From: an uncultured Candidatus Saccharibacteria bacterium
Lineage (GTDB): Bacteria; Patescibacteriota; Minisyncoccia; Phycocordibacterales; UBA9973
Assembly (NCBI GenBank): GCA_964426555.1
Contig: CAYRQJ010000003.1
Location: 1,229 to 65,228 of the forward strand
Reading direction: 5' to 3'
Length of the DNA: 64,000 bases
Below, piece by piece: positions 12,544-63,998 of the stretch. The stretch's first letter is position 1, and every line of letters begins with the position of its first letter. Both the position numbers and the translations under genes were made by a program. Below the pieces are notes generated by a model that did no database searches, had not been told where the DNA came from, and worked only from the letters and a program-made list of their open reading frames with translations.

Positions 12544-13680
12544 CTATACCTTAAATTCTACCACATCTCCGTCTTTTACAATATAGTCTTTGCCTACTGT
12601 CATTAATTTACCTTTGGCACGAGCGTCACCATAACTACCGGCTTCCAAAAGATCTTTCCAGTATACTACTTCAGCGCGAATGAATTTATCACGAAAATCG
12701 GTATGTATTGCCATACCAGCAACTGGTGCGGTACTTCCTTTCTCAATAGTCCAAGCTCTTGTCTCGGTTTCGCCTGTTGTAAAATAAGTTTCTAGACCAA
12801 GTAATTCATAAGACCCACGGATAAGGTCGGTAATCCCGTCCCCTGATTCTCCTCCAAATTCACTGCGCATCTCTTCCTTCTCAGCGCCATCGAAATCTTT
12901 TAGTTCTTCTTCAATTTTTGCATCGAACAACACAAACCCTGCTCGTTCATTGTAAATTTCGTTTAATAATTCTTTGTAAATTTCTGGAGCTTCAATATTT
13001 AAATTTTTTGCACCAGCACGAGTGTTTAACCCATATAACATTGGTTTAATAGTAATTAACCCTAATTGTTTTATGGCTTTCATTTCAAACTCATCCAAAT
13101 CTGCACGACGTGCAGGTAAACCAATTTCAAGCAAAGCTAGCACTTTTTCAATTGCTGACAACTCAACTAATGCATTTTTGTCTCCGCGACTTGCGTCTTT
13201 AGCAACATTCCCACGACGCTTTGTAACAGTATCAAGATCAGCCAAAGCTAATTCCATATTAATTACAGACATATCACGAATAGGATTAAAATCGGTATAC
13301 ACATGTTGCATTTCCCCACCGCTTAATTCTTTTCCATCTTTACCCAGATTTGATATTGGGAATAATCGTACAAGATGTAAGATTGCATCAACTTCACGAA
13401 TATGAGTTAAAAATTTATTACCCAAGCCTTCGCCCTTGCTGGCGCCTTCTACTAACCCTGCAATATCCACAAATTCAATAATTGCTGGAACAGTTTTTAC
13501 AGACTCTGAAAATATACCCAGTAAATTTAATCTTTCGTCAGGGACAGGAACAATACCTACTGATGGGTCAATAGTACAAAAAGGATAGTTTTCTGCTGGA
13601 ACAGATTTTTTTGTAAGCGCGTTAAACAATGTTGATTTTCCAACATTTGGTAGTCCTACAATTCCGATACTTAATTTCAT
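12544..13680 (-). CDS. ychF: ribosome-binding ATPase YchF (Obg-family GTPase)
   Basis: 378 aa. 'MKLSIGIVGLPNVGKSTLFNALT' P-loop and C-terminal TGS domain 'TGETETRAWTIEKGSTAPVAGMAIHTDFRDKFIRAEVV'. Confidence 0.9.
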   Translation of the reverse strand: MKLSIGIVGLPNVGKSTLFNALTKKSVPAENYPFCTIDPSVGIVPVPDERLNLLGIFSESVKTVPAIIEFVDIAGLVEGASKGEGLGNKFLTHIREVDAILHLVRLFPISNLGKDGKELSGGEMQHVYTDFNPIRDMSVINMELALADLDTVTKRRGNVAKDASRGDKNALVELSAIEKVLALLEIGLPARRADLDEFEMKAIKQLGLITIKPMLYGLNTRAGAKNLNIEAPEIYKELLNEIYNERAGFVLFDAKIEEELKDFDGAEKEEMRSEFGGESGDGITDLIRGSYELLGLETYFTTGETETRAWTIEKGSTAPVAGMAIHTDFRDKFIRAEVVYWKDLLEAGSYGDARAKGKLMTVGKDYIVKDGDVVEFKV

Positions 13681-13782
13681 GTGGTTAATATAGCAGAAAT
13701 AAGGGTATTTGTCATTTATAAATTACATTATTTAAATTCTACTTTTATCGCAAAATATAGGTTTATCTGCTAGTATGGTTAT

Positions 13783-14355
13783 ATGACTATAAAGATAACT
13801 TCTACAAAATTTGTAAAAGGAGTTGTAGGTAATGACCCAATTTTAACCAATGGTATCCCCCATTTGGCGTTTATTGGTAGATCTAATGTGGGTAAATCCA
13901 GCCTTATAAATTCACTAACCCATAGTAAAATTTCACGTACTAGTAGTAAGCCCGGTAGTACAAGAGAAATAAATGTATATTTAATAAATGGAGAATATTA
14001 TCTTGTTGATTTACCAGGGTATGGATTTGCGCAAGGGTCAAAATCTAGTAAAGAAAAAATGAGTGATCTTATTGAATCTTATATTTTTAACCCTAACTAC
14101 ACTCAAAAAAAGATAGTTCTAATAATTGATGCCAATGTTGGCATGACTGAAAAAGATCTTAGCATGTACGAAGAACTAAAAGAAAGTAAAAAAGATTTTA
14201 TTGTAGCTGCCAGTAAAATAGATAAAATGACTCAGTCTGAATATCATCACAAAATCAAGGAATTAGAATCTATGGTTGGCGCAAGTATTCTGTACCCATT
14301 CTCTTCAAAGAAGAAAAAAGGGTTAGATAAAATTACAGAAGTAGTTTTTGGGTAA
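13783..14355 (+). CDS. engB: ribosome biogenesis GTP-binding protein EngB/YsxC (YihA)
   Basis: 190 aa. 'HLAFIGRSNVGKSSLINSLT', 'DLPGYGF' and 'SKIDK' are the G1, G3 and G4 motifs in EngB order. Confidence 0.85.
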   Translation: MTIKITSTKFVKGVVGNDPILTNGIPHLAFIGRSNVGKSSLINSLTHSKISRTSSKPGSTREINVYLINGEYYLVDLPGYGFAQGSKSSKEKMSDLIESYIFNPNYTQKKIVLIIDANVGMTEKDLSMYEELKESKKDFIVAASKIDKMTQSEYHHKIKELESMVGASILYPFSSKKKKGLDKITEVVFG

Positions 14356-23424: not shown

Positions 23425-23445
23425 TTAAATACTATAGCATGTTTA

Positions 23446-27625: not shown

Positions 27626-27727
27626 AAAATTATTATAGCATTAAACTGTTTGCTTTGAATAAATATTTAATTTGCTAAATTGTATTTATTGTGTTTAAAT
27701 TTATAAAATCCTAAAAGAAAACAGCAG

Positions 27728-29688: not shown

Positions 29689-29808
29689 GTATGTAGCTAC
29701 ATTACACTAAAAACTGATAAATTCAAAATTATTATCTTAATAATTAGCTTTACTTGTACTATAGGTATATACTAACTATAGTACTTAATAGCTAACAAAT
29801 AAATATTT

Positions 29809-30180
29809 ATGTCAAAAAAAATAGCGCCGAAGAAAAACCAGACTGGTAAAATAGTCGCAGGGGCAATTGGTATTGCCGCAATTAGTGCAGTTGCTTATTT
29901 ACTAATGGGTCCCAATGGTAAAAAGAATCGCAAAGATTTAAAAGCCTGGATGCTAAAAATGAAAGCTGAAGTTGCTGAAAAAATAGAAGGACTAAAAGAT
30001 ATAACAAAAGATAAATACGACAATATAGTTGATGAAGTTTCTAAAAAATATAGCAAGATTAAAAATATAGACCAGTCAGATTTAAACAACGAAATTAATC
30101 ACCTTAAAAAAGAATGGTCAAAAATAACAAATGCTGGGAAAAAGAAAGTTGTAAAAAAATTAACAAAGAAAACCAAATAA
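29809..30180 (+). CDS. YtxH-like (DUF948) small membrane-anchored protein
   Basis: 123 aa. N-terminal TM 'GAIGIAAISAVAYLLMGPNGKKNRKDLK' followed by a Lys/Glu-rich helical tail. Confidence 0.4.
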   Translation: MSKKIAPKKNQTGKIVAGAIGIAAISAVAYLLMGPNGKKNRKDLKAWMLKMKAEVAEKIEGLKDITKDKYDNIVDEVSKKYSKIKNIDQSDLNNEINHLKKEWSKITNAGKKKVVKKLTKKTK

Positions 30181-30184
30181 ATTT

Positions 30185-30322
30185 ATGTTAGAAACAATTG
30201 CAATAATTTTAATATTTCTTTGGGTTTTAGGATTTGTTGGTTTTCATATGGTGGGTGGATTTATTCATATACTGCTAGTTGTAGCTATAATTATGTTTTT
30301 GGTAAGATTTATTCGAGGATAA
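30185..30322 (+). CDS. lmo0937-family tiny membrane protein (45 aa), absent from the ORF track
   Basis: Direct translation: MLETIAIILIFLWVLGFVGFHMVGGFIHILLVVAIIMFLVRFIRG*. Conforms to the lmo0937-family pattern (...WLLGF...H..GG.IH.LLV.A...F...). A hairpin terminator follows. Confidence 0.6.
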   Translation: MLETIAIILIFLWVLGFVGFHMVGGFIHILLVVAIIMFLVRFIRG

Positions 30323-30395
30323 ACTGTATGCCATATAAATATATAAAATCCCGGAATACGGGGTTTTATATATTTATGCTAGAATACATTTATGG

Positions 30396-30592
30396 ATCCC
30401 GTTAGAGATGATGTTGTTAAACAATTATACGAAAATTATAAATACAGAATTATAGTAAAAATAATAAGCGTTATTTAATTAAAGACGGAAACGCCTAATA
30501 TATCATGGAACAAAGTTATATAAAATTATTAATTAATAAAATAGGAGTACCTGATTTACAAGGATTAGGCGATTCCTATCTCTAACGGGATG
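30396..30592. repeat. diverged copy (D) of the GTCCCGTTAGA-ended palindromic cassette; outer end abuts the ATG of the 87-aa gene
   Basis: Left arm ggATCCCGTTAGAGATg (30395-30410). Right arm ATCTCTAACGGGATG (30577-30592), whose ATG is the start of ORF 30590..30853. AT-rich core between the arms. Confidence 0.5.
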
Positions 30593-30853
30593 GAAACACT
30601 AATACACGCTGATATATTTTTCTTTATTGCATCTATTGCAACTATTATTTTTGTAATCTTAATTTCAATTGCATTGTTTTATTTAATAGGAATATTGAAA
30701 AATGTTAAAAATGCTACAAATTTACTACATGGTAAAATTGAAACCGCTAGCGACAATTTAGAAGCAATGCGCCGAAAAATATCTGAAAGCTTAATTTTTA
30801 ATCTTATCTTCGCCCCAAAGCCCAAAAAAGCTAAACATACTAAGAAAGACTAG
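30590..30853 (+). CDS. hypothetical small membrane protein
   Basis: 87 aa with one TM ('FFFIASIATIIFVILISIALFYLIGIL'). Start codon is fused to the cassette arm. Confidence 0.4.
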   Translation: METLIHADIFFFIASIATIIFVILISIALFYLIGILKNVKNATNLLHGKIETASDNLEAMRRKISESLIFNLIFAPKPKKAKHTKKD

Positions 30854-31854
30854 TTTATTTCTATATCCACATATTCAATTTGTGGAAATTTTTGAATAAT
30901 AGTTTTTTCTATTTCGTCGATTCTGCTACCTACTAGTCTTGGAATACGGTCGGTGGTTTTAAACATTAATTTTGTAAATTCTCTAAAATCATCTTTTATA
31001 AAATCAAATTCTTCTTGCAAATCCCCCGCTTCATAAATTTCTGCATATAGTGGAGAACCATTCCATTCTACTGTTGCAAAAATACGGTATTTACCAATGT
31101 CTACTGCTACAGATTTAAATTCTATAATTTTTTCAATACATGGGTCTACTAAAAGTTCTTTAATTATATCACCACGAACATCTTCGTTTAACGATTTACC
31201 TATAATATATTGATAATTTTTTGCTATTAGTATTACTGCCAAAAATCCCAAAATTAATCCAACTATTATTCCCCCAATTGCATCGTATTCATAATGTCCA
31301 GTATATGCTGCTAATACTTGAGCAATAATAGCAATAATAACACCCAATACTGCAGCGCTGTCTTCATACACTACTGCCAGTGTAACTGGGTCAGCATCGG
31401 CAAAAATTTTTTTAGATAATTTTCTACCATGCTTTAATTCTTTTACCGCTAGATAAAGTGTGATACTTTCTACAATTAAAGCTATAACTAAAACTGTAAT
31501 TCCAAGTGTATTAATATCAGTGTTAGCATGTGCTCCGTGATCCATTAATGAATCTATAGAATGATACACCGTTACCCCTGCACCAATAAACAAAATTCCG
31601 CAAGCTGAAATTAAAGACCAAAAAAATCTTTCAATTCCATAACCATAACCGCGAATATGGTCGGCGGGTCTTTTTGACCGGTTAAGCCCAATTAATAGCA
31701 ATGACTGGTTTAATGTGTCAGCAAAACTGTGTACACTTTCTGCAAACATACTGGCAGACCCAGTAAATGCCGAAGCAATGACTTTTAATACTGTAACTAT
31801 AGTGTTACCTGTTAATGCTGCAATAACCGATGTTTTTCCGTGTGAGTGAGCCAT
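30850..31854 (-). CDS. cation diffusion facilitator (CDF) family metal efflux transporter
   Basis: Starts 'MAHSHGKTSVIAALTGNTIVTVLKVIASAFTGSASMFAESVHSFADTLNQ', the CDF signature, with 6 TM and a C-terminal cytoplasmic domain. The 42-codon N-terminal extension in the ORF track is disfavoured. Confidence 0.75.
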   Translation of the reverse strand: MAHSHGKTSVIAALTGNTIVTVLKVIASAFTGSASMFAESVHSFADTLNQSLLLIGLNRSKRPADHIRGYGYGIERFFWSLISACGILFIGAGVTVYHSIDSLMDHGAHANTDINTLGITVLVIALIVESITLYLAVKELKHGRKLSKKIFADADPVTLAVVYEDSAAVLGVIIAIIAQVLAAYTGHYEYDAIGGIIVGLILGFLAVILIAKNYQYIIGKSLNEDVRGDIIKELLVDPCIEKIIEFKSVAVDIGKYRIFATVEWNGSPLYAEIYEAGDLQEEFDFIKDDFREFTKLMFKTTDRIPRLVGSRIDEIEKTIIQKFPQIEYVDIEIN

Positions 31855-37781: not shown

Positions 37782-39047
37782 TTATTTTGCAATTCTAACT
37801 TGGCCACCCATATATGGACGTAGTACCTCGGGAATTATTATACTACCATCAGCTTGTTGGAAATTTTCTACCAATGCTGCAGGTAAACGACTGGTTGCAC
37901 AAGCAGTATTGTTTAAAGAATGAACAAATCTTAGTTTTCCATCAGTATCGCGATATTTTATGTTTAGTCTACGAGTTTGAAAATCATGAAAATAAGAAGA
38001 AGAATGTGTTTCTCTGTATTTGTTTTGTGATGGCATCCAAGCTTCGATGTCGTATTTTTTTACCTGACCTAAACCAAGATCCCCTCCGCAGTTTACAACT
38101 ACATGATAAGGTAAACCTAGTTCACGCATTAAATGTTCTACATGAGCTGTAATTTCTTCGTGCCATTTTACAGATTCTTCATGATTGGCTTCTGTTAAAA
38201 TAACTTGTTCAATTTTAAAAAATTCATGAACACGAATTATGCCTTTGGTATCAGCACCGTGCTTACCAGCTTCTGCACGGAAACATGGAGAAAATGCAAT
38301 ATATTTTTTAGGTAAATCTGTTTGTTCGATTACTTCGTTCATATGGTAACCCATAGTAGCTACTTCGGCAGTACCAGCTAAATATTCATTTTCGCCTACT
38401 TTATATAAATCATCTTCTGACTGTGGAAGCATTCCGGTACCAATAAGAGATTCTTTACGCACAAGTGATGGCACTATCATAGGAGTATAACCTTGGTCAA
38501 TAAAATAATTCAAAAAATATTGCCATAAAGCAAAAAATAATTTTACTCCATCATTTTTCATAAAATATCCACGAAATCCAGAAACCTTTACTCCTCGTTC
38601 AAAATCAACCATATTTAAATTCTCCATTAGTTCAATATGGTCTTTGGGTGTAAATTCAAATTGTGGAATATCTCCCCATACACGAATTTCTACATTGTCT
38701 TCGTCACTGTCCCCGTCTGGCACAGACATGTCTGGAACATTTGGAACTTCTAACATCATCTTTTGCCAATTTGTAATAATATTACGCAAAGATTCTTCTT
38801 TTGTTTGAAGTTCATCTTTTACAATTTTCATTTCTTCCAGTGCGGTAGTTTTTTCATCTGCTGAAAGATTGGCAATATTAGCTGAAACTGCATTTTGACG
38901 ACTTCGAAGTTCTTCGACTTCTTTTAACAGAGACAATCTCTGGTCGTCCAAATTAACTAGTTCATCAATATTTAAATTAATGTGTTTTTTAGTTATTGCA
39001 TTTTTAACAATATCGGTATTTTCGCGAATGAATTTAATGTCTAACAT
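37782..39047 (-). CDS. serS: seryl-tRNA synthetase
   Basis: 421 aa. N-terminal coiled-coil arm 'MLDIKFIRENTDIVKNAITKKH...' and class II core 'FRAEAG'/'RVHEFFKIEQV'. Start codon fused to a cassette arm. Confidence 0.9.
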   Translation of the reverse strand: MLDIKFIRENTDIVKNAITKKHINLNIDELVNLDDQRLSLLKEVEELRSRQNAVSANIANLSADEKTTALEEMKIVKDELQTKEESLRNIITNWQKMMLEVPNVPDMSVPDGDSDEDNVEIRVWGDIPQFEFTPKDHIELMENLNMVDFERGVKVSGFRGYFMKNDGVKLFFALWQYFLNYFIDQGYTPMIVPSLVRKESLIGTGMLPQSEDDLYKVGENEYLAGTAEVATMGYHMNEVIEQTDLPKKYIAFSPCFRAEAGKHGADTKGIIRVHEFFKIEQVILTEANHEESVKWHEEITAHVEHLMRELGLPYHVVVNCGGDLGLGQVKKYDIEAWMPSQNKYRETHSSSYFHDFQTRRLNIKYRDTDGKLRFVHSLNNTACATSRLPAALVENFQQADGSIIIPEVLRPYMGGQVRIAK

Positions 39048-39170
39048 CCCGTTTAGAAGCAGGTCACGATCCAGATGGTCCCGTTAATGCTTTAGTTAAG
39101 TGAATAATGAATTTTATATTTATATATATCCTGTTCTTGTAATCGTGATCGTGGCTTCTAACGGGATAAC
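39045..39170. repeat. copy A of the palindromic intergenic cassette (between divergent serS and dprA)
   Basis: On the plus strand: CATCCCGTTTAGAAGCAGGTCACGATC ... AT-rich core ... GATCGTGGCTTCTAACGGGATaac. The CAT at 39045-47 is the serS start codon on the minus strand. Confidence 0.65.
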
Positions 39171-39211
39171 ATATAGCTATACTATAGCAAAAATAGTAAA
39201 ATGTATAAAGT

Positions 39212-40060
39212 ATGCAAATAAAAGAGTTATTAAAAAATGACTTTCCTAAAAGATTTGACGATTTACCACAATACCCAAAGAATCTTTTTATTATTGGTAA
39301 TTTGCCCGACCCAAATAAATATAAAAATTTAGTTATTGTAGGATCTCGTAAACATACCAGCTATGGTAAACAAGTTGTGCGTGACATTATAGCCGGACTT
39401 GCAACATATCCTATTAATATTGTATCCGGACTGGCTTTGGGAATTGATACACTGGCTCACGAAGAAGCGTTACGTCATGGAATGATAGTTACAGCATTCC
39501 CCGGTTCCGGATTAAATAAAAATTCTATACACCCGCAAAATAATGTAAGACTGGCAGAAAAAATTTTTGAATCCGGAGGATGCTTAATTTCCGAATACGA
39601 ACCCAATTTCAAAGCAACTCAATATAGCTTCCCACAAAGAAATCGTCTTATGGCTGGGTATGCTCACGCGGTATTAATAATTGAAGCCGAAGAAAAATCA
39701 GGAACATTAATTACTGCAAGACTAACCACAGAATATAATCGAGATTTATTAGTTGTACCTGGTTCAATTTATAATTCTACATCCAAAGGTACGAATTGGT
39801 TACTATCCCAAGGTGCTACCCCAGTAACATGTGCCAACGATGTATTGATTGCATTAGGTTTTGATATAAATACCCACACACAAAGAAATGATATTTCAAA
39901 AGAAGAAGCAGTAATACTGGAAATATTAACCGAACCCAAAACAAGAGACGAAATAATTCGTGAATGTGACGGTAGCACTGAAGAAATAAATAGTTTATTA
40001 ATGAAAATGGAACTACGTGGAATAATTGTGGAAGACGCTGGGTATTTTAGAGTAGTTTGA
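39212..40060 (+). CDS. dprA: DNA processing protein DprA (Smf)
   Basis: 282 aa. Rossmann-like 'VIVGSRKHTSYGKQVVRDIIAGLATYPINIVSGLALGIDTLAHEEALRHG' is the DprA signature. Confidence 0.85.
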   Translation: MQIKELLKNDFPKRFDDLPQYPKNLFIIGNLPDPNKYKNLVIVGSRKHTSYGKQVVRDIIAGLATYPINIVSGLALGIDTLAHEEALRHGMIVTAFPGSGLNKNSIHPQNNVRLAEKIFESGGCLISEYEPNFKATQYSFPQRNRLMAGYAHAVLIIEAEEKSGTLITARLTTEYNRDLLVVPGSIYNSTSKGTNWLLSQGATPVTCANDVLIALGFDINTHTQRNDISKEEAVILEILTEPKTRDEIIRECDGSTEEINSLLMKMELRGIIVEDAGYFRVV

Positions 40061-40108
40061 CAAATTATCTTATTAGTGGAATGATATATTAAATTTAATA
40101 TATCTACT

Positions 40109-40600
40109 ATGGACACAACAGAAATTCAAATTAACACTCTAAACATTACAACCAAGGTTCCTGTTAGAAGTAACTATGATGCAAAAAAATTTATTAAAGT
40201 TTCAGTTTCACTTGACTGGGATATTAAATTCTTTAAAACAGGACACCGGTTAAAAAAGTTTTTACGTGAAGAACATGTCAGAACATTGGATGAATTTATT
40301 CAACACTACGATCAACTATATGATAGCTGCCCATGGAAAGCATTGACTCAATTAGAAACATTCAATACTGCAATTCATAATATTCTGACCGGGCCTCCTT
40401 ATACAAAGGAAACTATGCAGTTTATTAAAAAGAACATAATTGGTCCAAGAAAAAGACCAAATGCAATTCAAAAGTCTTTCTTAAATGCTTTATATTTTTT
40501 TGAAACAATTTTTAATAAGTCAAAAGAATTCAAAGCTTTTGTAAATAAAAAAGCTAAAGATCTACAAATTACATGGGTTCCTATTTATAAATATTTATAA
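40109..40600 (+). CDS. hypothetical protein
   Basis: 163 aa, basic; sits between dprA and topA. Confidence 0.3.
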   Translation: MDTTEIQINTLNITTKVPVRSNYDAKKFIKVSVSLDWDIKFFKTGHRLKKFLREEHVRTLDEFIQHYDQLYDSCPWKALTQLETFNTAIHNILTGPPYTKETMQFIKKNIIGPRKRPNAIQKSFLNALYFFETIFNKSKEFKAFVNKKAKDLQITWVPIYKYL

Positions 40601-40604
40601 ATCA

Positions 40605-40656
40605 CCCAAAAAAATATTTTTTGCCAAGCAAACATGCTTGGCAATTTTATTTTTTA
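40605..40656 (+). terminator. intrinsic terminator (ttgccaagcaaacatgcttggcaa + T-run)
   Basis: 9-bp stem followed by T-rich run. Confidence 0.6.
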
Positions 40657-40740
40657 TTTGCCCCGTAGTAGATATTTTTTAAAAATATTCACTACAGGGT
40701 TTGCAAAAAAATTTAGTGTGTAGTATTAGTATAAGTACCT

Positions 40741-40858
40741 GTCCCGTTAGAAACCGCGATCGCAATAATAAAAAACATAAATATGAAAATACATTTAATC
40801 AACATTAAAAGAATAAATAAACAAGAACGTGATATGATCGCGATCTGTTTCTAACGGG
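40741..40858. repeat. copy B of the palindromic intergenic cassette; outer end runs directly into the topA ATG
   Basis: GTCCCGTTAGAAACCGCGATCGCAATA ... 65 nt AT-rich ... CGTGATATGATCGCGATCTGTTTCTAACGGG followed by ATG (40859). Contains the GCGATCGC and GATCGCGATC palindromes. Confidence 0.7.
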
Positions 40859-43129
40859 ATGAATAAGACATTAGTAATTGTAGAATCACCATCAAAAGCT
40901 AAAACTATTGAAAAATATTTAGGTACTGGTTTTACAGTGCGCGCATCTATTGGTCACATTCGTGATCTACCAAAATCAAACAAAATAGCTATTGATATTC
41001 CAGGTGGATTTATCCCCCATTACGAAGTTTCTAAAGGAAAAGAAAAAGTAATAAAAGAACTGCGTGATTTATCTACTAAAGCTGACAATATAATACTGGC
41101 AACCGACCCGGACCGCGAAGGTGAAGCTATAGCATGGCATTTACAAGAAGTTTTAAACGAAAAGCACAAAAAACCTTTGACAAATATTAAACGTGCTACT
41201 TTTCATGAAATTACAAAAGACGCAGTTTTAACTGCAATAAATCACCCTCGAGAAATTGACCAAGATTTACGTAAAGCTCAAGAAGCTCGTCGCGTACTGG
41301 ATCGTCTTGTGGGTTACGATTTGTCCGGAGTAATTTGGAAAAAAGTTCGTTATGGTTTGTCTGCGGGACGAGTTCAGTCCCCTGCAATGCGAATACTTTG
41401 CGAAAGAGAAAGAGAAATTTTAGCTTTTATACCCGAGCAATATTTTGTAATTGAAGCTGATTTAAAACCAGCCGGTAGTGAATTTTTAACATTTACATGC
41501 AGTATCGAACCAACAGATAAAAAAATAGTTGATGATATTTTAAAAAATGGCAAACAGGAAGATTGGTACGTAAAAGACATAAAAGACACCGAAGCAAAAC
41601 GTAGCCCAAAGCCACCTTTTGCAACATCGTCTTTACAACAAACAGCTTCAACAAGACTGGGATTTTCTCCATCTCGAACAATGCAAGTAGCCCAAAAATT
41701 GTATGAAGCCGGACATATTACATATATGCGTACAGATTCTACAAATCTTGGAACCGCCGCTATTGCTCAAATAAGTGACTTAATAAAAAAACAATACGGA
41801 GTAAATTATTTAGAAAACCGAGTATATAAAACAAAATCCAAAAATGCTCAAGAAGCTCACGAAGCAATTCGTCCTACTGACGTAAATAAAAAAAATATTG
41901 GCCAAACTGAAGAACAAAAGAAATTATATAACTTGATTTGGGAAAGAACCGTAGCATCACAAATGGTAGACGCACGTGTTATGCGCAGTAAAATTACAGC
42001 AAATATAAAAACAAATTCAATTCCCGATTTTACAGTAAATGGTTCAAAGTTAATTTTTGACGGATTTTTAAAAGTTGATACGGGAGCAATTGGCGAAGAA
42101 ACAATTCTACCAAAACTAAGTAAAGACGAAGATTTAAAATTAGTAGATTTACGTGATATTGAAAAATTTACTCAGCCACCAAATCGTTATACGGAAGCTG
42201 GACTAATTAAAGAATTAGAAGAACGTGGTATTGGCCGGCCTTCTACATATGCATCTATTATGCGCACTATTGAAGAACGCGGTTATGTAGATAAACAAGG
42301 TCGTACTTTATTCCCTACCGATACTGGTATGGTAGTTTCTGGATTTCTGGAAGAACATTTTGCAGACTATATTAGTGATACTTTTACAGCTGAGATGGAA
42401 GACAAGTTAGATGAAATTTCTGAAGGTAAAAGAGATTATAGTAAAACACTAACCGAATTTTATAATCCATTTTTAAAACTAGTTAAAGAAAAAGATAAAC
42501 TAGACAAAGCTACAAATATTGAGGGGGCACCTGATGATATTCTTTGCCCTAAATGTGGTAAGGCTATGATGGTAAAGCTGGCCCGTAATGGAAAATTTTA
42601 TTCTTGTATTGATTACCCAGATTGTATGGGTGCAAGAAAAATTGATGGCACAGAAATGCAAGGACCAAAAGAAATTGGTAGACCTTGTCCTAAATGTGGA
42701 ACCCCTGCCACAGAAGAAGTAATATACAACAAAGACGGCAGTGTTCGTAAAAGCCGAAAAACAAAAATAGTAGAACTGGGTAAATTGGTTCTGCGTGAAG
42801 GTAAATTTGGTAATTTTATATCTTGTTCTCGTTACCCTAAATGTAAATACATCGAAGAAGATGAAGAAGAAAAGAAGAAACGCGAAACTGGAGTAAAATG
42901 CCCACAATGTAGTGACGGTGTTATGAGCGAACGTCGCGGTAGATTTGGAATATTTTATTCTTGTAGTAATTACCCAACTTGCAAAAATGCGATAAAAGCT
43001 AAACCAACAGGAAATATTTGCCAAATGTGCAGTTCTTTAATGATGGATGGCACAAAAACTATACCGGAACGATGTAGTAATACTAAATGTCCAAACCATA
43101 GACCAGACAAACTAGAAAAAACCAAATAG
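40859..43129 (+). CDS. topA: DNA topoisomerase I with four C-terminal zinc ribbons
   Basis: 756 aa. Toprim 'TLVIVESPSKAKTIEKYLG', 'LATDPDREGEAIAWHL', catalytic 'ITYMRTDST' (Tyr), then 4 C4 modules (CPKCG...CIDYPDC; CPKCG...; CSRYPKC; CPQCS...CSNYPTC). Confidence 0.9.
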   Translation: MNKTLVIVESPSKAKTIEKYLGTGFTVRASIGHIRDLPKSNKIAIDIPGGFIPHYEVSKGKEKVIKELRDLSTKADNIILATDPDREGEAIAWHLQEVLNEKHKKPLTNIKRATFHEITKDAVLTAINHPREIDQDLRKAQEARRVLDRLVGYDLSGVIWKKVRYGLSAGRVQSPAMRILCEREREILAFIPEQYFVIEADLKPAGSEFLTFTCSIEPTDKKIVDDILKNGKQEDWYVKDIKDTEAKRSPKPPFATSSLQQTASTRLGFSPSRTMQVAQKLYEAGHITYMRTDSTNLGTAAIAQISDLIKKQYGVNYLENRVYKTKSKNAQEAHEAIRPTDVNKKNIGQTEEQKKLYNLIWERTVASQMVDARVMRSKITANIKTNSIPDFTVNGSKLIFDGFLKVDTGAIGEETILPKLSKDEDLKLVDLRDIEKFTQPPNRYTEAGLIKELEERGIGRPSTYASIMRTIEERGYVDKQGRTLFPTDTGMVVSGFLEEHFADYISDTFTAEMEDKLDEISEGKRDYSKTLTEFYNPFLKLVKEKDKLDKATNIEGAPDDILCPKCGKAMMVKLARNGKFYSCIDYPDCMGARKIDGTEMQGPKEIGRPCPKCGTPATEEVIYNKDGSVRKSRKTKIVELGKLVLREGKFGNFISCSRYPKCKYIEEDEEEKKKRETGVKCPQCSDGVMSERRGRFGIFYSCSNYPTCKNAIKAKPTGNICQMCSSLMMDGTKTIPERCSNTKCPNHRPDKLEKTK

Positions 43130-43235: not shown

Positions 43236-43274
43236 TTTAAAAATAGAACAGAGGTTGTGCTATAATACTCTCAT
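43236..43274 (+). promoter_or_regulatory. putative extended -10 promoter (TGcTATAAT) 8 nt upstream of rel ATG; likely leaderless
   Basis: tgctataat at 43258-43266 and ATG at 43275. No room for an SD, implying a leaderless or very short leader. Confidence 0.35.
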
Positions 43275-44726
43275 ATGCAACATATTGAGAGTATTTTTAA
43301 TATAAAGAAATTTTCAAAAAAAGAACGGGACGTATTGGAAAAAGCGTACGATTTTGCAAAGGCAGCTCACACTGGCCAACTAAGAAAAAGCGGTGAGCCT
43401 TATTTTGTGCATGTATTTACTACTGCAAAAAATTTAGCTGAACTAAATATGGACGGTAATGTAGTAGCTGCAGGATTTTTACATGACGTACTAGAAGATA
43501 CAAAAGTTACAGAAGAAGAAATGCAGAAATCTTTTGGTGATGATATTACAAATTTGGTTTTGGGTGTTACAAAACTGGGAACTGTAAAATATAAAGGAGT
43601 TGAACGTAGTGTAGAAAATTTGCGTAAATTTTTTGTATCTATGGCTGAAGACATGCGAGTTATAATTATTAAACTTGCAGATAGATTACATAATATTGAA
43701 ACACTATCTCACGTACGAGAAGACAAACAAAAACGAATTGCACTGGAGACACTGGAAGTATACGCCCCATTAGCAGATAGATTGTCCATGGGTAAATTAA
43801 AAGGTCGTCTTGAAGATGCAGCGTTTCCTTATGCTTATCCTAAAGAATATGGCGAAGTAAAACTATTAAGAGAATCTCGTAAAGATGCGGCACTACCTGA
43901 ATTAATAAAAGTAGAAAACAATATTAAAAAAATTCTAAATCAATATTCGTTAAAACCAATTACCGTAGACCACAGAGAAAAACATTTATATTCTCTATGG
44001 AAAAAACTGCATAAATATAAAATGGATATAAACCATGTATACGACATTATAGCTATGCGTATAGTGGTAAAAAATATTGAAGAATGTTATTTGGCATTGG
44101 GGTTAATTCATGGTGCTTACAAACCCCTGCCAGGCCGTATAAAAGACTATATAGCCCTGCCAAAGCCCAATGGCTACAGATCTCTCCATACCACAATTAT
44201 TACCGAATCTGGAGCAATTATAGAAATTCAAATTAGAACTGAAGAAATGCATAACGAAGCAGAATATGGTCTTGCTGCACACTATGCATACAAAGGAAAT
44301 TTCAATACTGAAGACGAAAAATACAATTGGGTTAAAGAATTGCGTGATACTCAAAGCGAAGAAGAAACCGTTGATGGGTTTTACAAAAATTTAAAAATGG
44401 ACTTTTTTAAAGATCGAGTTTTTGCTTTTACTCCCAAAGGTGACATTGTAAATCTTCCTGACGATGGGACTGTACTAGATTTTGCTTTTAATGTTCACAG
44501 TGAAATAGGGATGCATGCTCAAGCTGGCGAAGTAAATGGTAAATTTGCTGCGCTAAACCACAAATTGGTAAATGGTGATGTTGTAAAAATAATTACCGCT
44601 AAAAATGTAAAGCCATCCAGTAAATGGCTAGAATTTGCAAAATCTACAATGGCTCGTAAACATATAGAAAAACATTTAAAACAAAATTCCCTACTTTCAA
44701 AATTTCTTTCTTTTGGACAAAAATAA
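43275..44726 (+). CDS. RelA/SpoT homolog (HD hydrolase + (p)ppGpp synthetase + TGS), short form
   Basis: 483 aa. HD 'HDVLEDT', synthetase 'DIIAMRIVV' and 'RIKDYIALPKPNGYRSLHTTI', TGS 'VFAFTPKGDIVNLPDDGTVLDFAFNVHSEIG'. Ends after TGS, with no ACT/RIS domains. Confidence 0.8.
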   Translation: MQHIESIFNIKKFSKKERDVLEKAYDFAKAAHTGQLRKSGEPYFVHVFTTAKNLAELNMDGNVVAAGFLHDVLEDTKVTEEEMQKSFGDDITNLVLGVTKLGTVKYKGVERSVENLRKFFVSMAEDMRVIIIKLADRLHNIETLSHVREDKQKRIALETLEVYAPLADRLSMGKLKGRLEDAAFPYAYPKEYGEVKLLRESRKDAALPELIKVENNIKKILNQYSLKPITVDHREKHLYSLWKKLHKYKMDINHVYDIIAMRIVVKNIEECYLALGLIHGAYKPLPGRIKDYIALPKPNGYRSLHTTIITESGAIIEIQIRTEEMHNEAEYGLAAHYAYKGNFNTEDEKYNWVKELRDTQSEEETVDGFYKNLKMDFFKDRVFAFTPKGDIVNLPDDGTVLDFAFNVHSEIGMHAQAGEVNGKFAALNHKLVNGDVVKIITAKNVKPSSKWLEFAKSTMARKHIEKHLKQNSLLSKFLSFGQK

Positions 44727-61231: not shown

Positions 61232-61480
61232 TTATGAAGCAGATTGTAATGTATTTATAAGTAAGTTTAATATTCCATAAACTCCAAACATTATAAACAA
61301 ACCAATTAATCCCCACATCATATGTTTAGTCCCCTTGTTTCTAGCTTCTTCACTGCTAGCATCCATTATCATTTCAACTACTCCCCAAATAAACACAACC
61401 AGGGCAACTATAAACATTAGTTTAATTAAAGGTTGTACAATATTTGAGACCAATGCTCCGATAATTTTGGAACTATCCAT
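61232..61480 (-). CDS. TrbC/VirB2-like pilin paralog P1 (two-helix small membrane protein)
   Basis: 82 aa. Hydrophobic helix 'LMFIVALVVFIWGVVEMIM', charged loop 'DASSEEARNKGTKH', second helix 'MMWGLIGLFIMFGVYGIL'. Same architecture as P2-P4. Confidence 0.5.
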   Translation of the reverse strand: MDSSKIIGALVSNIVQPLIKLMFIVALVVFIWGVVEMIMDASSEEARNKGTKHMMWGLIGLFIMFGVYGILNLLINTLQSAS

Positions 61481-61488
61481 AAATTAAA

Positions 61489-61890
61489 TTAACAGTTTTG
61501 ACTTTGACCAGGAACACAAGGAAGTGTTACATCAGCAGAACCAGGTGTACCAGTACCTAATGTACGACGTACGATAGCTACAAGACCCCAAATTGTTGTT
61601 ATAACGAATAGACCCAACACACCATACAAGATTGTACCTTGAGCTTTCTTTTGAGCTTCTTCCCCACCACTACGTCCTGCAATGATGAATTGCACTACAC
61701 CAATGATGATCATTAAGATAGCAAACCCTACTAAAACACGAATGAACAAGTTCATTAATGATTGACCAGTACTAAGGATTGTTCCTACTGTTTGTGGACC
61801 AGTATAAGCTGGACCAACGTTAGTAGTACCCTGAGCAAATGATGCAATAGGAGCCAAGAAACCGAAAGCAAGTATTAATAAATTACGCAT
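61489..61890 (-). CDS. TrbC/VirB2-like pilin paralog P2
   Basis: 133 aa. Signal peptide 'MRNLLILAFGFLAPIASFA', helix 'FIRVLVGFAILMIIIGVVQFIIAG', loop 'RSGGEEAQKKAQG', helix 'TILYGVLGLFVITTIWGLVAIVRRTLG'. Cys-containing C-terminal tail. Confidence 0.5.
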   Translation of the reverse strand: MRNLLILAFGFLAPIASFAQGTTNVGPAYTGPQTVGTILSTGQSLMNLFIRVLVGFAILMIIIGVVQFIIAGRSGGEEAQKKAQGTILYGVLGLFVITTIWGLVAIVRRTLGTGTPGSADVTLPCVPGQSQNC

Positions 61891-61979
61891 ATTAAATGAA
61901 AATTCTTTGTTAATAATATAGTCTTATTATACTATATATTCTTATAATCAAGCAAGGAAATAAGGTCTTTTGTGTATAA

Positions 61980-63326
61980 CTATTTTATAATAATCTTTAC
62001 TTCGTTAGTTACATAGACTTTACTAGTTGTAATATCTTTATAGTGATACATTATACAACTTTGTGTCCCGGAGCCTGGTATTGTATAAGTTGGAGAAGTA
62101 TAACCAGTATCAGCAGTTAAGCTTTTATTAGAATTTTTTTCTAAAATATTCGGTCCAATAGTTCCGTCTCCTCCAATTATTTTGCATTGCACAAATAACA
62201 CACCATTATATGGAGTAAATGATTTATTAACATCCCAACCAAATTTACCTGTTACTGATCCAGCTTTTTCGCTAATCTTACTAAATGTTAAATTAGCAGT
62301 ATAAGGATTTGGAGTAATAGCATCTTTTGTTATTAAAGGAAAATTACCACTTGTTGTACCAGAACTTGTATTATTATTTGAAGCTGGCGCTTGACTACCA
62401 GCAGTAAGTAAGCTTTTTGAAGTATAACCAAGAAATGTTTTATCAGATTTAAAGATATTCCAAAAACCACTGGTTTCCCCACTAACATTTAAAACAGTTC
62501 CATAAGCATTTTTAGTAATAATATTGGCTGATGAAGCAGTGCTTGGGTCAGATCTTAGGTTTGCACCATTTAGAGCATTTACATAGTATTGTTTCAAAGT
62601 TCCAGCTACAGGAGAATTATCCGCAGGAGGAGTTACTACTGGGTCAGTTTTAACTGAATCACCCTGAGAATTTGTTGGTTCTTTTGCTACATCTTTTTGA
62701 GTATTAGGGTCTACTACTGTTCCAGTATTTGTTCCGTTGGTAGTTGTATTACCAGTACCCACCCCGGTTGTTGTATTATTATTTAAAACTGCACCTGCTG
62801 TTGCTGTTCCGTTAGAATTATTTACATTATTAACTACCCCAGCATTGGAGCCTGAATTAACTAGATTATTATTGTTGGTAATACTGGAATTACTAACCCC
62901 ACTGTCTTTTGAAATATTTGAAACAGTATCAATAATTACATTTGAAATTAACTGTGCCCCAAGAATTATTGCGGCCCCAATCAAAGTCCAAGTTAAAGTT
63001 TTATGAGCTGTTTCGATTGCTTCTGGTTTACCACGAGCAACAACATATAAGAATCCAGAATATATAACCATTACAATAATAACTGGTATAGCAAACTCAA
63101 TCACAACTTTTAAAATTTTTGCAATTAAATCTTTGATTGTAGTAGTACAACCCGTACCACCTTTTTTGTCACAAATTGGATTATCAATTGCTACCTTTAA
63201 TTCAAAATTATCCGCCGGAGTAGCAGTTTTAGCATCTTGTGCAATTGCTAATTTAGGAAGCATTGCAAAGTTTCCAGAAAATACAACTATTAAAAACAAT
63301 AAAGATGTTAGAAAATTTTTTTTCAT
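61980..63326 (-). CDS. giant pilin-like paralog P3: TrbC/VirB2-like N-terminal module + N/T/G/S low-complexity linker + SH3b-like domain + unknown C-terminal domain
   Basis: 448 aa. Signal peptide, helix 'ILKVVIEFAIPVIIVMVIYSGFLYVVARG', loop 'KPEAIETAHKT', helix 'LTWTLIGAAIILGAQLIS'. A ~120-aa linker follows ('NNNNLVNSGSNAGVVNNVNNSNGTATAGAVLNNNTTTGVGTGNTTTNGTNTGT'), then 'YYVNALNGANLRSDPSTASSANIITKNAYGTVLNVSGETSGFWNIFKSDKTFLGYTSKSLL' (SH3_3-like). Start codon fused to the cassette C arm. Confidence 0.5.
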   Translation of the reverse strand: MKKNFLTSLLFLIVVFSGNFAMLPKLAIAQDAKTATPADNFELKVAIDNPICDKKGGTGCTTTIKDLIAKILKVVIEFAIPVIIVMVIYSGFLYVVARGKPEAIETAHKTLTWTLIGAAIILGAQLISNVIIDTVSNISKDSGVSNSSITNNNNLVNSGSNAGVVNNVNNSNGTATAGAVLNNNTTTGVGTGNTTTNGTNTGTVVDPNTQKDVAKEPTNSQGDSVKTDPVVTPPADNSPVAGTLKQYYVNALNGANLRSDPSTASSANIITKNAYGTVLNVSGETSGFWNIFKSDKTFLGYTSKSLLTAGSQAPASNNNTSSGTTSGNFPLITKDAITPNPYTANLTFSKISEKAGSVTGKFGWDVNKSFTPYNGVLFVQCKIIGGDGTIGPNILEKNSNKSLTADTGYTSPTYTIPGSGTQSCIMYHYKDITTSKVYVTNEVKIIIK

Positions 63327-63447
63327 CCCGTTAGAAGCAGATCGCGATCAAATCACGATTTTGCTTTATTATACTTATAATTTTACTTTTATTTAAATTC
63401 ATATATTTATTATCTTATCATATTGCGATCGCGGCTTCTAACGGGAC
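63324..63447. repeat. copy C of the palindromic intergenic cassette, in opposite orientation to copy B; outer end abuts the P3 start codon
   Basis: CATCCCGTTAGAAGCAGATCGCGATCAAATCACG ... AT-rich ... ATTGCGATCGCGGCTTCTAACGGGAC. The reverse complement aligns end-to-end with copy B. Confidence 0.65.
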
Positions 63448-63452
63448 AGGTT

Positions 63453-63998
63453 CTACTTTAAATTTAAAGCTTTATCTTTTAATTGTTCATAAGGCGCCGA
63501 ATCACCTGTATTTATACCAAAACCAAATGTTCTTCTTATAACAGCAACCAATGCATATACTGCTGTTATAACAAAAAAACCAATAATTCCATAAAGAATA
63601 AATTGTCTACCTTTTGCTTGAGATTCTTCACTTGCAGGATTACGAAGCATTACTGTGACTCCCCATACAAAAGAAACTGTAGCAATAGCAAAAATAAATG
63701 GCAGTATAGATACCCGAACTAAACAACCGATGTAATCTACATAACCACCAAATGTTTTATTGTTGCTAGCCACAGTACATGTATTTGTCCCAGCACTGCG
63801 CAAAATAGATGTATCATTATTAATATTACCTTCTGTTGTAATATTTACTTTTTCATTACCAACAACATTAGTATCACTGCCAACAAAATTATCCTCGGCT
63901 GTCCAGTTAACTGGACTATTTGTGTCGTCGGCTCCAAAACCACTAAACTGTGCATTTGTAAACACCGGTACAATACATATTAAAAGCATAACTAGCAC
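63453..63998 (-). CDS. TrbC/VirB2-like pilin paralog P4 (GTG/ATG start near window edge; may be slightly truncated by the window)
   Basis: 181 aa. Signal peptide 'MLVMLLICIVPVFTNA', ~90-aa Cys-containing N-terminal region, then helix 'LVRVSILPFIFAIATVSFVWGVTVML', loop 'RNPASEESQAKGRQ', helix 'FILYGIIGFFVITAVYALVAVIRRTFG' (C-terminus homologous to P2). Confidence 0.5.
   Translation of the reverse strand: MLVMLLICIVPVFTNAQFSGFGADDTNSPVNWTAEDNFVGSDTNVVGNEKVNITTEGNINNDTSILRSAGTNTCTVASNNKTFGGYVDYIGCLVRVSILPFIFAIATVSFVWGVTVMLRNPASEESQAKGRQFILYGIIGFFVITAVYALVAVIRRTFGFGINTGDSAPYEQLKDKALNLK

Follow-up and report, generated by a model that had tools for sequence, protein, structure and literature searches.

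Start-codon-flush hairpin elements in the window

The DNA analysed here, a stretch of 64,000 nucleotides (nt) from an uncultured Candidatus Saccharibacteria bacterium (referred to in full as the window), contains the genes serS and topA, a gene for a 448-aa protein resembling the pilins of type IV secretion systems (T4SS), and an 87-aa membrane protein open reading frame (ORF). Directly upstream of each of these lies one copy of a short non-coding hairpin element, named A, B, C and D before serS, topA, the pilin-like gene and the 87-aa ORF, respectively. In the four copies the 3' arm of the hairpin runs into the ATG with zero spacing, as an earlier note on this DNA had stated for topA (40859, + strand), serS (39047, - strand) and the pilin-like ORF (63326, - strand), and the same is found at the 87-aa ORF (30590, + strand). 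This report deals with these four copies and with the family to which they belong.

The window contains eight perfect matches to the 9-mer CCCGTTAGA, all of them members of four inverted pairs spaced by 98-174 nt; the ends are, as had been claimed, inverted repeats of each other. Allowing up to two mismatches, TCTAACGGGATG gave nine matches against 2.5 expected, and none of 100 shuffles reached nine, which bears out the judgement that the arrangement is too regular to be fortuitous. Each copy has a terminal stem of 12-14 bp (Y-CCCGTTAGA...TCTAACGGG-R, Y being a pyrimidine and R a purine), all four copies are predicted to fold into this long stem (-30 to -47 kcal/mol, z from -3.3 to -6.9), and the stems differ among copies by compensatory changes (GAAAC/GUUUC, GAAGC/GCUUC and GAGAU/AUCUC).

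Not everything in the common architecture that had been proposed for the four regions holds for all of them. The terminal stem and the fusion to ATG do, whereas the long end consensus with the palindromes GCGATCGC / GATCGCGATC is confined to copies B and C, where it is a subfamily feature and makes a second helix. These two copies are 81% identical along their full length (75-80% had been estimated). In copy A the palindromes are related but diverged (CACGATC / GATCGTG), and the 3' arm has one extra nucleotide (TCTAAACGGG). Copies A and D have little in common beyond the termini; copy D, of 198 nt, shares only its terminal ca. 14 nt with the others. The GC-rich palindrome is therefore no constituent of every copy, and GCGATCGC, which had been equated with the HIP1 octamer, has nothing to do with cyanobacterial HIP1. 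Coordinates are collected in Table 1. The pilin-like gene, whose product bears an SH3 domain as well, belongs to a run of four genes (61232-63998) encoding small membrane proteins with T4SS-pilin (PF18895) signatures (82, 133, 448 and at least 181 aa).

Table 1. Positions of the hairpin copies, their parts, the adjoining genes and other features in the window
Feature	Positions	Strand	Remarks
Copy B (archetype, 5' of topA)	40742..40859	+	Sequence; fold -30.3 kcal/mol, z -5.4
Copy B, terminal Y	40742	+	T; sequence
Copy B, outer stem (P1), 5' strand	40743-40754	+	CCCGTTAGAAAC; sequence
Copy B, second helix (P2), 5' strand	40755-40761	+	CGCGATC; sequence
Copy B, core	40762-40835	+	AT-rich, variable; sequence
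Copy B, P2, 3' strand	40836-40842	+	GATCGCG; sequence
Copy B, 4-nt 3' bulge	40843-40846	+	ATCT; sequence
Copy B, P1, 3' strand	40847-40858	+	GTTTCTAACGGG; sequence
Copy B, terminal R	40859	+	A, first base of the topA ATG; sequence
Copy B, left flank	40737..40742	+	ACCTGT; does not repeat the start-codon hexamer; also the left flank in copy C
Copy C (5' of the 448-aa T4SS-pilin-like ORF)	63326..63446	-	CGCGATC subfamily, as B; fold -38.3 kcal/mol, z -6.9
Copy C, adjoining ATG	63326-63324	-
Copy C, left flank	63446-63451	-	ACCTGT, reverse complement of these positions
Copy A (5' of serS)	39047..39166	-	1-nt insertion in 3' arm
Copy A, direct repeat	39167-39172 and 39042-39047	- (as read)	ATGTTA; fits Y-element-R plus a 5-bp duplication, TGTTA
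Copy D with flanks	30392..30595	+	Fold -47.4 kcal/mol, z -4.75
Copy D, left hexamer	30392-30397	+	ATGGAT
Copy D, element	30398-30589	+	174-nt core
Copy D, right hexamer	30590-30595	+	ATGGAA, start of the 87-aa membrane ORF; TGGA duplicated
topA	40859..43129	+	Pfam Toprim, Topoisom_bac, Zn_ribbon_Top1; downstream of copy B
serS	37782..39047	-	Pfam Seryl_tRNA_N, tRNA-synt_2b; downstream of copy A
448-aa T4SS-pilin-like / SH3 protein gene	61980..63326	-	Pfam; downstream of copy C
87-aa membrane protein ORF	30590..30853	+	Downstream of copy D
Extended -10-like box	30377..30385	+	TGcTAGAAT; ends 6 nt upstream of copy D left ATG
Promoter-like sequence	39181..39209	-	TTTATA-17-TATAGT with TG; ends 8 nt upstream of copy A left ATGTTA
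Hairpin of a second family, 38 nt	40662..40699	+	CCCGTAGTAG...CACTACAGGG; TTTGC flanks at 40657-40661 and 40700-40704

A hairpin family found across phyla

The pattern CCCGTTAGA-N85-115-TCTAACGGG was searched in 185,579 species-representative genomes, which gave at least 120 stretches (the genome set), and metagenome contigs were scanned independently (the metagenome set). At least 273 distinct copies from these two public scans were analysed, and all figures for either set refer to the matches listed. By our own calculation, some 270 matches to this 18-base gapped pattern are expected by chance in the 596 Gb of the genome collection, so that raw match counts prove nothing by themselves. Pairing beyond the searched 9-mers is informative in this respect: at least four of five extra base pairs were present in 121 of 136 matches, as compared to a chance rate of 1.6% per match. 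The arms are nearly always one forward and one reverse, 50-150 nt apart (overall pairing range 50-200 nt). The hosts are mostly Patescibacteria of many classes; other labels, including Omnitrophota, Planctomycetota and Deltaproteobacteria, make up about a quarter of the genome matches, although some labels of metagenome-assembled genomes may be wrong. The family thus extends far beyond the window, with the qualification that the core is variable and is not shared by all copies.

Among 2.9 million viral contigs only three matches were found, none of them flush with a start codon; one (L126) lacks the extended pairing, and the other two, identical to each other, have three extra inner pairs and no outer ones. 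Carriage by phages was discarded on these grounds. No match to plasmids was obtained by blastn. No Rfam family corresponds to the element: a search of the whole window at gathering thresholds and of positions 38950-40950 at E<=10 rendered only tRNAs and noise. No description of it was found in the literature, either by full-text search with the arm sequences or among work on miniature inverted-repeat transposable elements (MITEs) or leaderless genes in Patescibacteria, Saccharibacteria or the candidate phyla radiation.

It could be argued that short GC-rich palindromes in an AT-rich genome resemble each other by chance, or that the copies are assembly artefacts. The number of random matches expected in the genome collection and the poor pairing of the viral matches would be in agreement with this. 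On the other hand, four pairs in 64 kb, a count that no shuffle reached, together with the extended pairing and with the replication of flanking repeats, start-codon fusion and polarity in the independent metagenome set (see below), make such an explanation practically negligible.

The outer stem, P1, comprises 12-14 bp, within which the conserved inverted terminus amounts to 13 nt (Y-CCCGTTAGA-RRY). Stem positions 10-12 covary (AT/GC, GC/AT/CG, TA/CG) and are Watson-Crick paired in 93% of cases. In the subfamily of copies B and C, which accounts for 23 of the 82 start-codon-flush copies of the genome set, a 7-bp helix, P2, follows P1 directly on the 5' strand and is set off from it on the 3' strand by a constant bulge of 4 nt (ATCT, ACCT or TCCT), that is, WYCU located 13-16 nt before the AUG. 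P2 covaries as well (CGCGATC/GATCGCG, CACGGTC/GACCGTG, CGCGGAC/GTCCGCG), and its G.U pairs are about eight on the gene-sense strand against one of the opposite kind; the sense strand folds better than the antisense strand by 2.35 kcal/mol (p=3e-4). The core is free to differ between copies. The stable stem takes in the first two bases of the AUG. The suggested pairing of the 3' arm with the 5' arm is thus reproduced in the predicted folds, and an occlusion of the start codon, which lacks a Shine-Dalgarno (SD) sequence, would be consistent with the modelled structure.

Flanking duplications and an element-borne start-codon base

The six bases flanking the element on each side (N1-N6) were compared in 140 copies of the genome set, with expectations derived from shuffled pairing. 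N2-N5 were identical on the left and the right in 94 copies (12 expected), and the base beside the left arm could pair with the base beside the right arm in 133 (70 expected), while N1 was the same on both sides (left -6 = right +1) in only 75 (54 expected). The metagenome set rendered a similar picture, with identical 4-mers in 65 of 124 copies (10 expected) and -1/+1 pairing in 119 (61 expected). Since N2-N5 repeat and N1 and N6 behave as an inverted repeat, the unit is Y-CCCG...CGGG-R plus a flanking duplication. Both a 2-nt crossover alone and a full 6-bp duplication were ruled out as models of the flanks, the former because N2-N5 behave as a duplication and the latter because N1 and N6 belong to the inverted repeat. 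The duplication is mostly of 4 bp, T-N-N-A, in the form of TGAA, TGGA or TGAG in Patescibacteria and TAAA elsewhere.

The terminal Y/R pair in 147 start-flush copies was T/A in 118, C/G in 26 and C/A in 3. GTG is the adjoining start in 26 of the 147, and all 26 have C at left -1, the left remnant usually being still ATG. As every GTG start is paired with a left C, the first base of the rebuilt start codon must be supplied by the element. It follows, moreover, from a terminal purine placed next to a duplicated TG.. target that the right junction reads R+TG, which leaves the start codon intact.

Some left flanks have the form ACYTG[TC]. In the genome set these are found in L047, L055 and L107, which belong to unrelated genomes and subfamilies, and ACTTGT and ACTTGC recur as left flanks in other copies. 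The UGU of an ACYTGT flank could pair with AUG through U:A, G.U and U.G.

Two copies of the same subfamily, in loci L058 (5220-5338) and L093 (3801-3919) of different species-level genomes, have flanks of the 3-bp type (ATGG T ... ATGG). Since the genes that follow them (MAE[VL]K...) are orthologous, some insertions must be old and have been passed on by descent.

Occupied and empty sites in syntenic relatives

Judged by the homologues of its TopA, the window belongs to a Nomurabacteria-like lineage of Patescibacteria. Syntenic loci were compared in relatives whose TopA is 94% (L121/L128), 71% (L122) and 72% (L124) identical to that of the window. The order serS(-) dprA(+) small ORF(+) topA(+) is kept in all of them. 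The spacer between serS and dprA is 38-39 nt long in the three relatives, compared to 164 nt in the window, and the region upstream of topA measures 64-101 nt in the relatives, compared to 258 nt in the window. At the serS site (alignment A4) the window carries a clean insertion of 125 nt relative to the three relatives; it is bordered at either end by TAACAT (which reads ATGTTA in the direction of serS), a hexamer that each of the relatives has just once. Copy B is absent from L121, L122 and L124 (alignment A3). Altogether, the 34 kb available from the 94% relative contain no copy, as opposed to three in the matching stretch of the window. Sequence comparison thus identifies the copies as insertions rather than as a conserved leader. 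An exact-protein look-up for strain-level polymorphism gave only a contig carrying the same insertion.

Copy D is located within a segment of ca. 1.1 kb of the window that has no counterpart in the 94% relative, and its empty site is uninformative because the entire segment is missing there. Besides copy D and the 87-aa ORF, this segment (ca. 29700-30860) contains a YtxH-like gene (29809-30180) and a hairpin resembling a terminator (30335-30377); at the corresponding place the relative has cation-efflux and ABC-ATPase genes separated by 44 nt. Locus L121 contains in addition a 457-aa gene without a Pfam match (7388-8761 of that locus), between dprA and the ORF upstream of topA, that is not present in the window. 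The start of topA also differs among the genomes, being ATG AAT AAG ACA (MNKT, 40859-40867) in the window, ATG AAG ACA (MKT, 10001-10006) in L121 and ATG AGT AAA (MSKT) in the 71% relatives, with MKLL in most homologues.

The 38-nt hairpin at 40662-40699 is likewise absent from L121, L122 and L124. It represents a second, smaller family of mobile hairpins, which has CCCGT...ACGGG ends in common with the main one. A longer member of the second family is found in L028 (ca. 6024-6153) between two copies of the main family, all three being separated by ATGAAT.

Location at gene starts and polarity

Copies flush with the initial ATG or GTG of an ORF of 50 codons or more amount to 82 of 141 in the genome set and 66 of 124 in the metagenome set. 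A start lies within 30 nt in 96 of 122 copies, and in 43 of these 96 a co-directional ORF also ends within 30 nt upstream; in 13 copies the stop codon of the upstream ORF is inside the left repeat, in a classic ATGA overlap. In phyla that use SD sequences, the element either immediately precedes the SD on its 5' side or separates it from the ATG. Coding sequence makes up 91% of the window, where RTNNAY is found 3140 times, 12 times at start codons and 312 times elsewhere in intergenic DNA. With such a ratio, site preference plus loss from coding DNA is insufficient to account for 50-60% of copies at starts. Targeting of transcription starts was rejected as the sole explanation, since for one half of the flush copies an ORF in the same direction ends 60 nt or less upstream, which places many copies inside operons. 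An intron- or intein-like element inside coding sequences was also considered and rejected: long ORFs are seldom fused in frame when the element is removed together with one repeat, and the few instances found look fortuitous.

The genes located downstream are unrelated to each other, with 114 Pfam families in 99 proteins and none dominant. The orientation of the element is, in turn, strongly biased, the arm on the bulge side (followed by YAGR) being proximal to the gene in 47 of 51 informative copies of the genome set (p=2e-10) and in 33 of 34 of the metagenome set.

Expression across the element

In the window, TANNNT ending 5-9 nt before the ATG is found at 21 of 46 genes and an SD-like core at one of 46, and this genome apparently makes heavy use of leaderless mRNAs. 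Examples of (extended) -10-like boxes are located at 13765-13785, 23425-23445, 27626-27645 and 43255-43277. The window also contains genes for LepA (677-2476) and YchF (12544-13680); YchF is retained in Patescibacteria and promotes translation of leaderless mRNA (PMC12641178).

Many copies have a -10-like box 6-9 nt upstream of the left hexamer. Before the real ATG of the 82 flush copies, -10-like hexamers were found in none at 5-7 nt and in two each at 8 and 9 nt, so that a leaderless promoter inside the 3' arm was rejected. The transcript should consequently start at the left remnant and contain the hairpin. For copy D, whose left ATG is preceded by an extended -10-like box (Table 1), the transcript would start at the left hexamer and include the whole hairpin. 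The promoter-like sequence near copy A, which is conserved in the relatives with an empty site, is the putative serS promoter.

The left remnant retains an ATG in about 80-87% of the flush copies. Translated from this ATG, the 5' arm is stop-free (CCC GTT AGA), and a TGA or TAG immediately closes either of the remaining frames. In the left-ATG frame the core is open in 24 of 65 genome copies, compared to 7 and 6 in the two alternative frames (p=1e-5), and in 23 of 44 metagenome copies, compared to 5 and 3 (p=1e-7); altogether, the frame is open through the hairpin in about 45% of copies. It ends at the UAA of UC-UAA-CGGG-AUG (at -7) in 29 cases and at the UGA of A-UGA (at +1, overlapping the real AUG) in 15. 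The resulting peptides are not conserved and have in common only MxPVR, which is encoded by the arm. An N-terminal extension of the downstream protein was discarded, as nearly all copies have an in-frame stop within the element and only 3 of 108 read into the gene; the in-frame class of element lengths is indeed depleted (23 versus 53 and 32, p=0.001). We regard the open frame, on the basis of these sequence counts, as a signature of selection for the passage of ribosomes followed by termination and reinitiation at the real AUG.

Similarities to known elements

Two bacterial MITEs of 5' regions, the Correia repeat enclosed elements (CREE) of Neisseria and the enterobacterial repetitive intergenic consensus (ERIC) sequences, are likewise short and non-coding, end in inverted repeats, are flanked by a short duplication and occur in multiple copies that are polymorphic between relatives; they are co-transcribed as hairpins and influence or tolerate the expression of the adjacent gene. 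Both carry partial promoters (PMC3488235). The family described here differs from them in its termini (Y-CCCGTTAGA), in a duplication of 3-5 bp of the type T-N-N-A instead of TA, in its exact location on the start codon, the first base of which it supplies, in its strongly fixed orientation and in the presence of the same termini across phyla. Highly similar upstream regions preceding non-homologous genes within one genome have been described as putative mobile promoters (Matus-Garcia et al. 2012, PMC3488235). Our copies resemble these in that respect, but they carry no obvious promoter, the -10-like box being upstream of the left repeat and present at empty sites too.

REPINs, hairpins formed by doublets of repetitive extragenic palindromic (REP) sequences that REP-associated tyrosine transposases (RAYTs) mobilise, have been described mainly in Proteobacteria. 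They share with the element two conserved inverted ends, a variable spacer, a hairpin of ca. 100 nt, the lack of autonomy and the concerted evolution of the arms, which according to two reports serves to keep the hairpin (PMC3337134, PMC3116915). The main family has GTTAG (in CCCGTTAGA) in place of the GTAG head of REPs, which is present, however, in CCCGTAGTAG of the second family. Other differences are that the ends are not REP palindromes in all subfamilies, that there is a flanking duplication and that the location is at gene starts rather than generally extragenic.

Integron attC sites are imperfect hairpins of ca. 60-140 nt with terminal boxes containing GTTAGA/TCTAAC and a variable terminal structure, in which unpaired bases on one arm set the polarity, and which are located just upstream of an ORF (PMC5027507). 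A comparable asymmetry is found here in the constant 4-nt bulge of the 3' arm and in the 47:4 polarity, the role of the bulge in DNA being putative. The order of the boxes is nevertheless the opposite, 5'-RYYYAAC...GTTRRRY-3' in attC (PMC5027507) versus 5'-GTTAGAR...YTCTAAC-3' in our element. Furthermore, instead of cassette arrays there are single copies with direct repeats, dispersed between housekeeping genes, and no integrase domain was found among the scanned ORFs.

Inserts that are neutralised at translation include the byp elements of yeast mitochondria, the bypass of T4 gene 60, the Rickettsia palindromic elements and the ribosome shunting of pararetroviruses. In these, as is proposed for our case, a hairpin insert is tolerated because ribosomes pass it, with matching codons on both sides or a short ORF ending at the foot of the hairpin. 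The element differs in being located before the ORF and not inside it, and the route suggested by its sequence would be termination-reinitiation from a duplicated start, not hopping.

A probable mobile hairpin and its alternatives

The family is real, multi-copy and cross-phylum, and it is not a regulatory cassette. We consider it probable (about 70%) that the cassettes are non-autonomous, non-coding foldback (hairpin) mobile elements of 100-200 bp, similar to MITEs and REPINs, that are tolerated at start codons and gene junctions. In common with MITEs, they are short (<300 bp), lack coding capacity of their own, have terminal inverted repeats, are flanked by target-site duplications, as indicated by the flank statistics and the clean empty site at serS, and are present in some genomes and absent from related ones. 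The replicated open-frame signal and the start-codon base borne by the element are the unusual parts.

Insertion generates the duplication of 3-5 bp, mostly T-N-N-A and typically TGAA or TGGA, and the left junction keeps the old ATG and, at ATGA overlaps, the stop codon of the upstream gene as well. According to our proposal, insertions could survive in a compact, almost SD-free genome since nothing would be destroyed. A transcript from the old upstream promoter would contain the whole hairpin, and initiation at the left AUG would take place as before the insertion, at the 5' terminus or by coupling to the ORF that precedes it. Ribosomes initiating there would, in some 45% of copies, read through, stop in the 3' arm and reinitiate at the real AUG. 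In the remaining ones, including the four of the window, the stem would merely place the old initiation point beside the real AUG, and in the predicted folds of the window copies it comes within a few nt of it.

Several observations weigh against a simple mobile hairpin of this kind. The copy B site differs from that of the 94% relative by more than the element, namely by an extra AAT codon in topA and a change in the 9-14 nt upstream; the additional codon resembles the hexamers flanking the element and may be the footprint of an earlier insertion and excision. The duplication is not of constant length, with cases of 3 and 5 bp that include L058/L093 and copy A, respectively, and in copies B and C, as well as in three of the 82 flush copies of the genome set and three of the 66 of the metagenome set, the left flank is ACYTG[TC] and not a repeat. 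None of the four window copies has a read-through frame: the left frame is closed after 4 codons in copy A, by the UAG located in the 5' arm, and after 28 in copy D, and copies B and C have ACCTGT in place of ATG. The passage of ribosomes through an open frame cannot therefore explain the expression of topA or serS here. As regards mobilisation, neither an autonomous copy nor a transposase with these ends was found in ca. 1.7 Mb of retrieved loci, where no arm pair encloses an ORF (unpaired arms were checked for distant partners enclosing an ORF, and none was convincing), and no transposase, recombinase or integrase domain was detected among the scanned ORFs of the window or in the precomputed Pfam results of the relatives, several ORFs having no match at all. 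Finally, a symmetric DDE transposase does not predict a strong polarity, which would need selection or a strand- or site-specific mechanism.

The short duplication and the inverted termini do fit a DDE transposase. We know of no cognate insertion sequence for the start-codon element; the IS1380 family, with CC ends and 4-5 bp duplications, is a possible candidate. The concerted arms, the one-sided bulge, the polarity, the palindromic excised junction and the tandem copies in L028 fit better a strand- or structure-specific enzyme, such as an HUH transposase of the RAYT type or a tyrosine or serine recombinase. The element could accordingly be a single-stranded DNA hairpin acted upon by an HUH tyrosine transposase that recognises REPIN-like doublets, or by a tyrosine or serine recombinase that recognises a circular junction of the form ...TCTAACGGG-RTNNAY-CCCGTTAGA... 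The arms covary so as to keep the hairpin and not a fixed sequence, the asymmetric bulge marks one strand as the extrahelical bases of attC sites do (PMC5027507), and a polarity relative to a non-palindromic target (TGAA) would follow naturally. Owing to the terminal Y:R and A:T pairs, an excised circle would have a junction that is perfectly palindromic about a central NN, the L028 tandem copies are separated by exactly one hexamer, and the lack of any copy bearing a transposase would also be accounted for. We nonetheless hold this possibility as doubtful, given that the ORFs scanned in the window and the precomputed results of the relatives revealed neither a recombinase nor a RAYT gene (nor did the ORFs scanned in the available 64 kb show an HUH or Y1 domain), that the target has no arms resembling the element, that the box order is the reverse of that of attC and the head is GTTAG and not GTAG, and that a repeat varying between 3 and 5 bp fits staggered cuts better than a fixed crossover.

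The two models put forward in the earlier note, a cis-regulatory cassette and a MITE-like element that inserts at or donates start codons, have fared very differently. In the first, GCGATCGC and GATCGCGATC would be operators bound by a looping repressor, or the cassette would be a signal-sensing 5' leader or promoter, in either case co-regulating serS, topA and the pilin gene. The position directly upstream of the start codon in a single orientation, and a stable stem that includes the first two AUG bases, are what such a cassette would show. The element is, however, absent from the same loci of all the relatives compared, including that with 94% identity in TopA, the downstream genes belong to 114 Pfam families in 99 cases and form no coherent set, the core is not conserved, the palindromes are restricted to one subfamily and covary as a helix, Rfam yields no match up to E=10, and flanking direct repeats are not expected of a regulatory site. 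Conservation at orthologous loci, which would characterise a structured cis-regulatory RNA, is thus lacking, and we judge this explanation very improbable. The regulatory link among serS, topA and the pilin gene falls with it, because of the empty sites, the unrelated downstream genes and the subfamily-specific, covarying palindromes. The second model is sustained by the empty sites, the direct repeats and the element-supplied first base. The covariation proposed as a check is found in the arms and in P2, and the target-site duplications sought as another are present in both sets. Copies are enriched at start codons, as the regulatory model demanded, and are at the same time flanked by duplications, as a plain MITE predicts. 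These direct repeats, together with the empty sites, also argue for insertion over inversion, that is, against an inverton.

A mobile origin does not preclude a function, and the element might have spread as a MITE and been retained as a 5' module because its hairpin is beneficial, through stabilisation of mRNA against decay that depends on the 5' end, processing by RNase III or throttling of the translation of leaderless genes. The strong polarity, the bias of G.U pairs and of stability towards the sense strand, the conserved WYCU bulge, the reading frame kept open and the insertion upstream of orthologous genes common to L058 and L093 would be in line with this. We nevertheless find it unlikely, since the essential genes serS and topA do without the element in close relatives, no class of genes is preferred, and the same features are expected if selection merely removes harmful orientations and frames. 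A further step beyond the mobile hairpin would be a cross-phylum family specialised on the start codons and stop/start junctions of compact genomes, rendered transparent to translation by its own purine, the old AUG and the frame-specific stops of the 3' arm, and whose insertion is perhaps targeted and oriented by a strand- or structure-specific enzyme and not only sieved by selection; we put this forward only tentatively, as a possibility less probable than its negation.

Implications

The presence of one 13-nt terminus in Patescibacteria, Omnitrophota and Planctomycetota, with a strict orientation and no visible transposase, points to a putative mobilising enzyme. The frame that in about 45% of copies would relay ribosomes from the left AUG to the real one makes translation reinitiation directly testable in bacteria of the SD-less, leaderless type. 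With regard to annotation, ca. 120 bp of apparently intergenic DNA fused to a start codon in Patescibacteria and some other uncultured phyla is to be taken as a mobile insertion and not as a promoter or leader comparable between genes, and GTG starts that adjoin the element are made by the element itself. The family shows, moreover, how a transposon can persist in genomes that are ca. 91% coding, since the duplication and the terminal base restore the stop codon of the upstream gene and the start codon of the downstream one.

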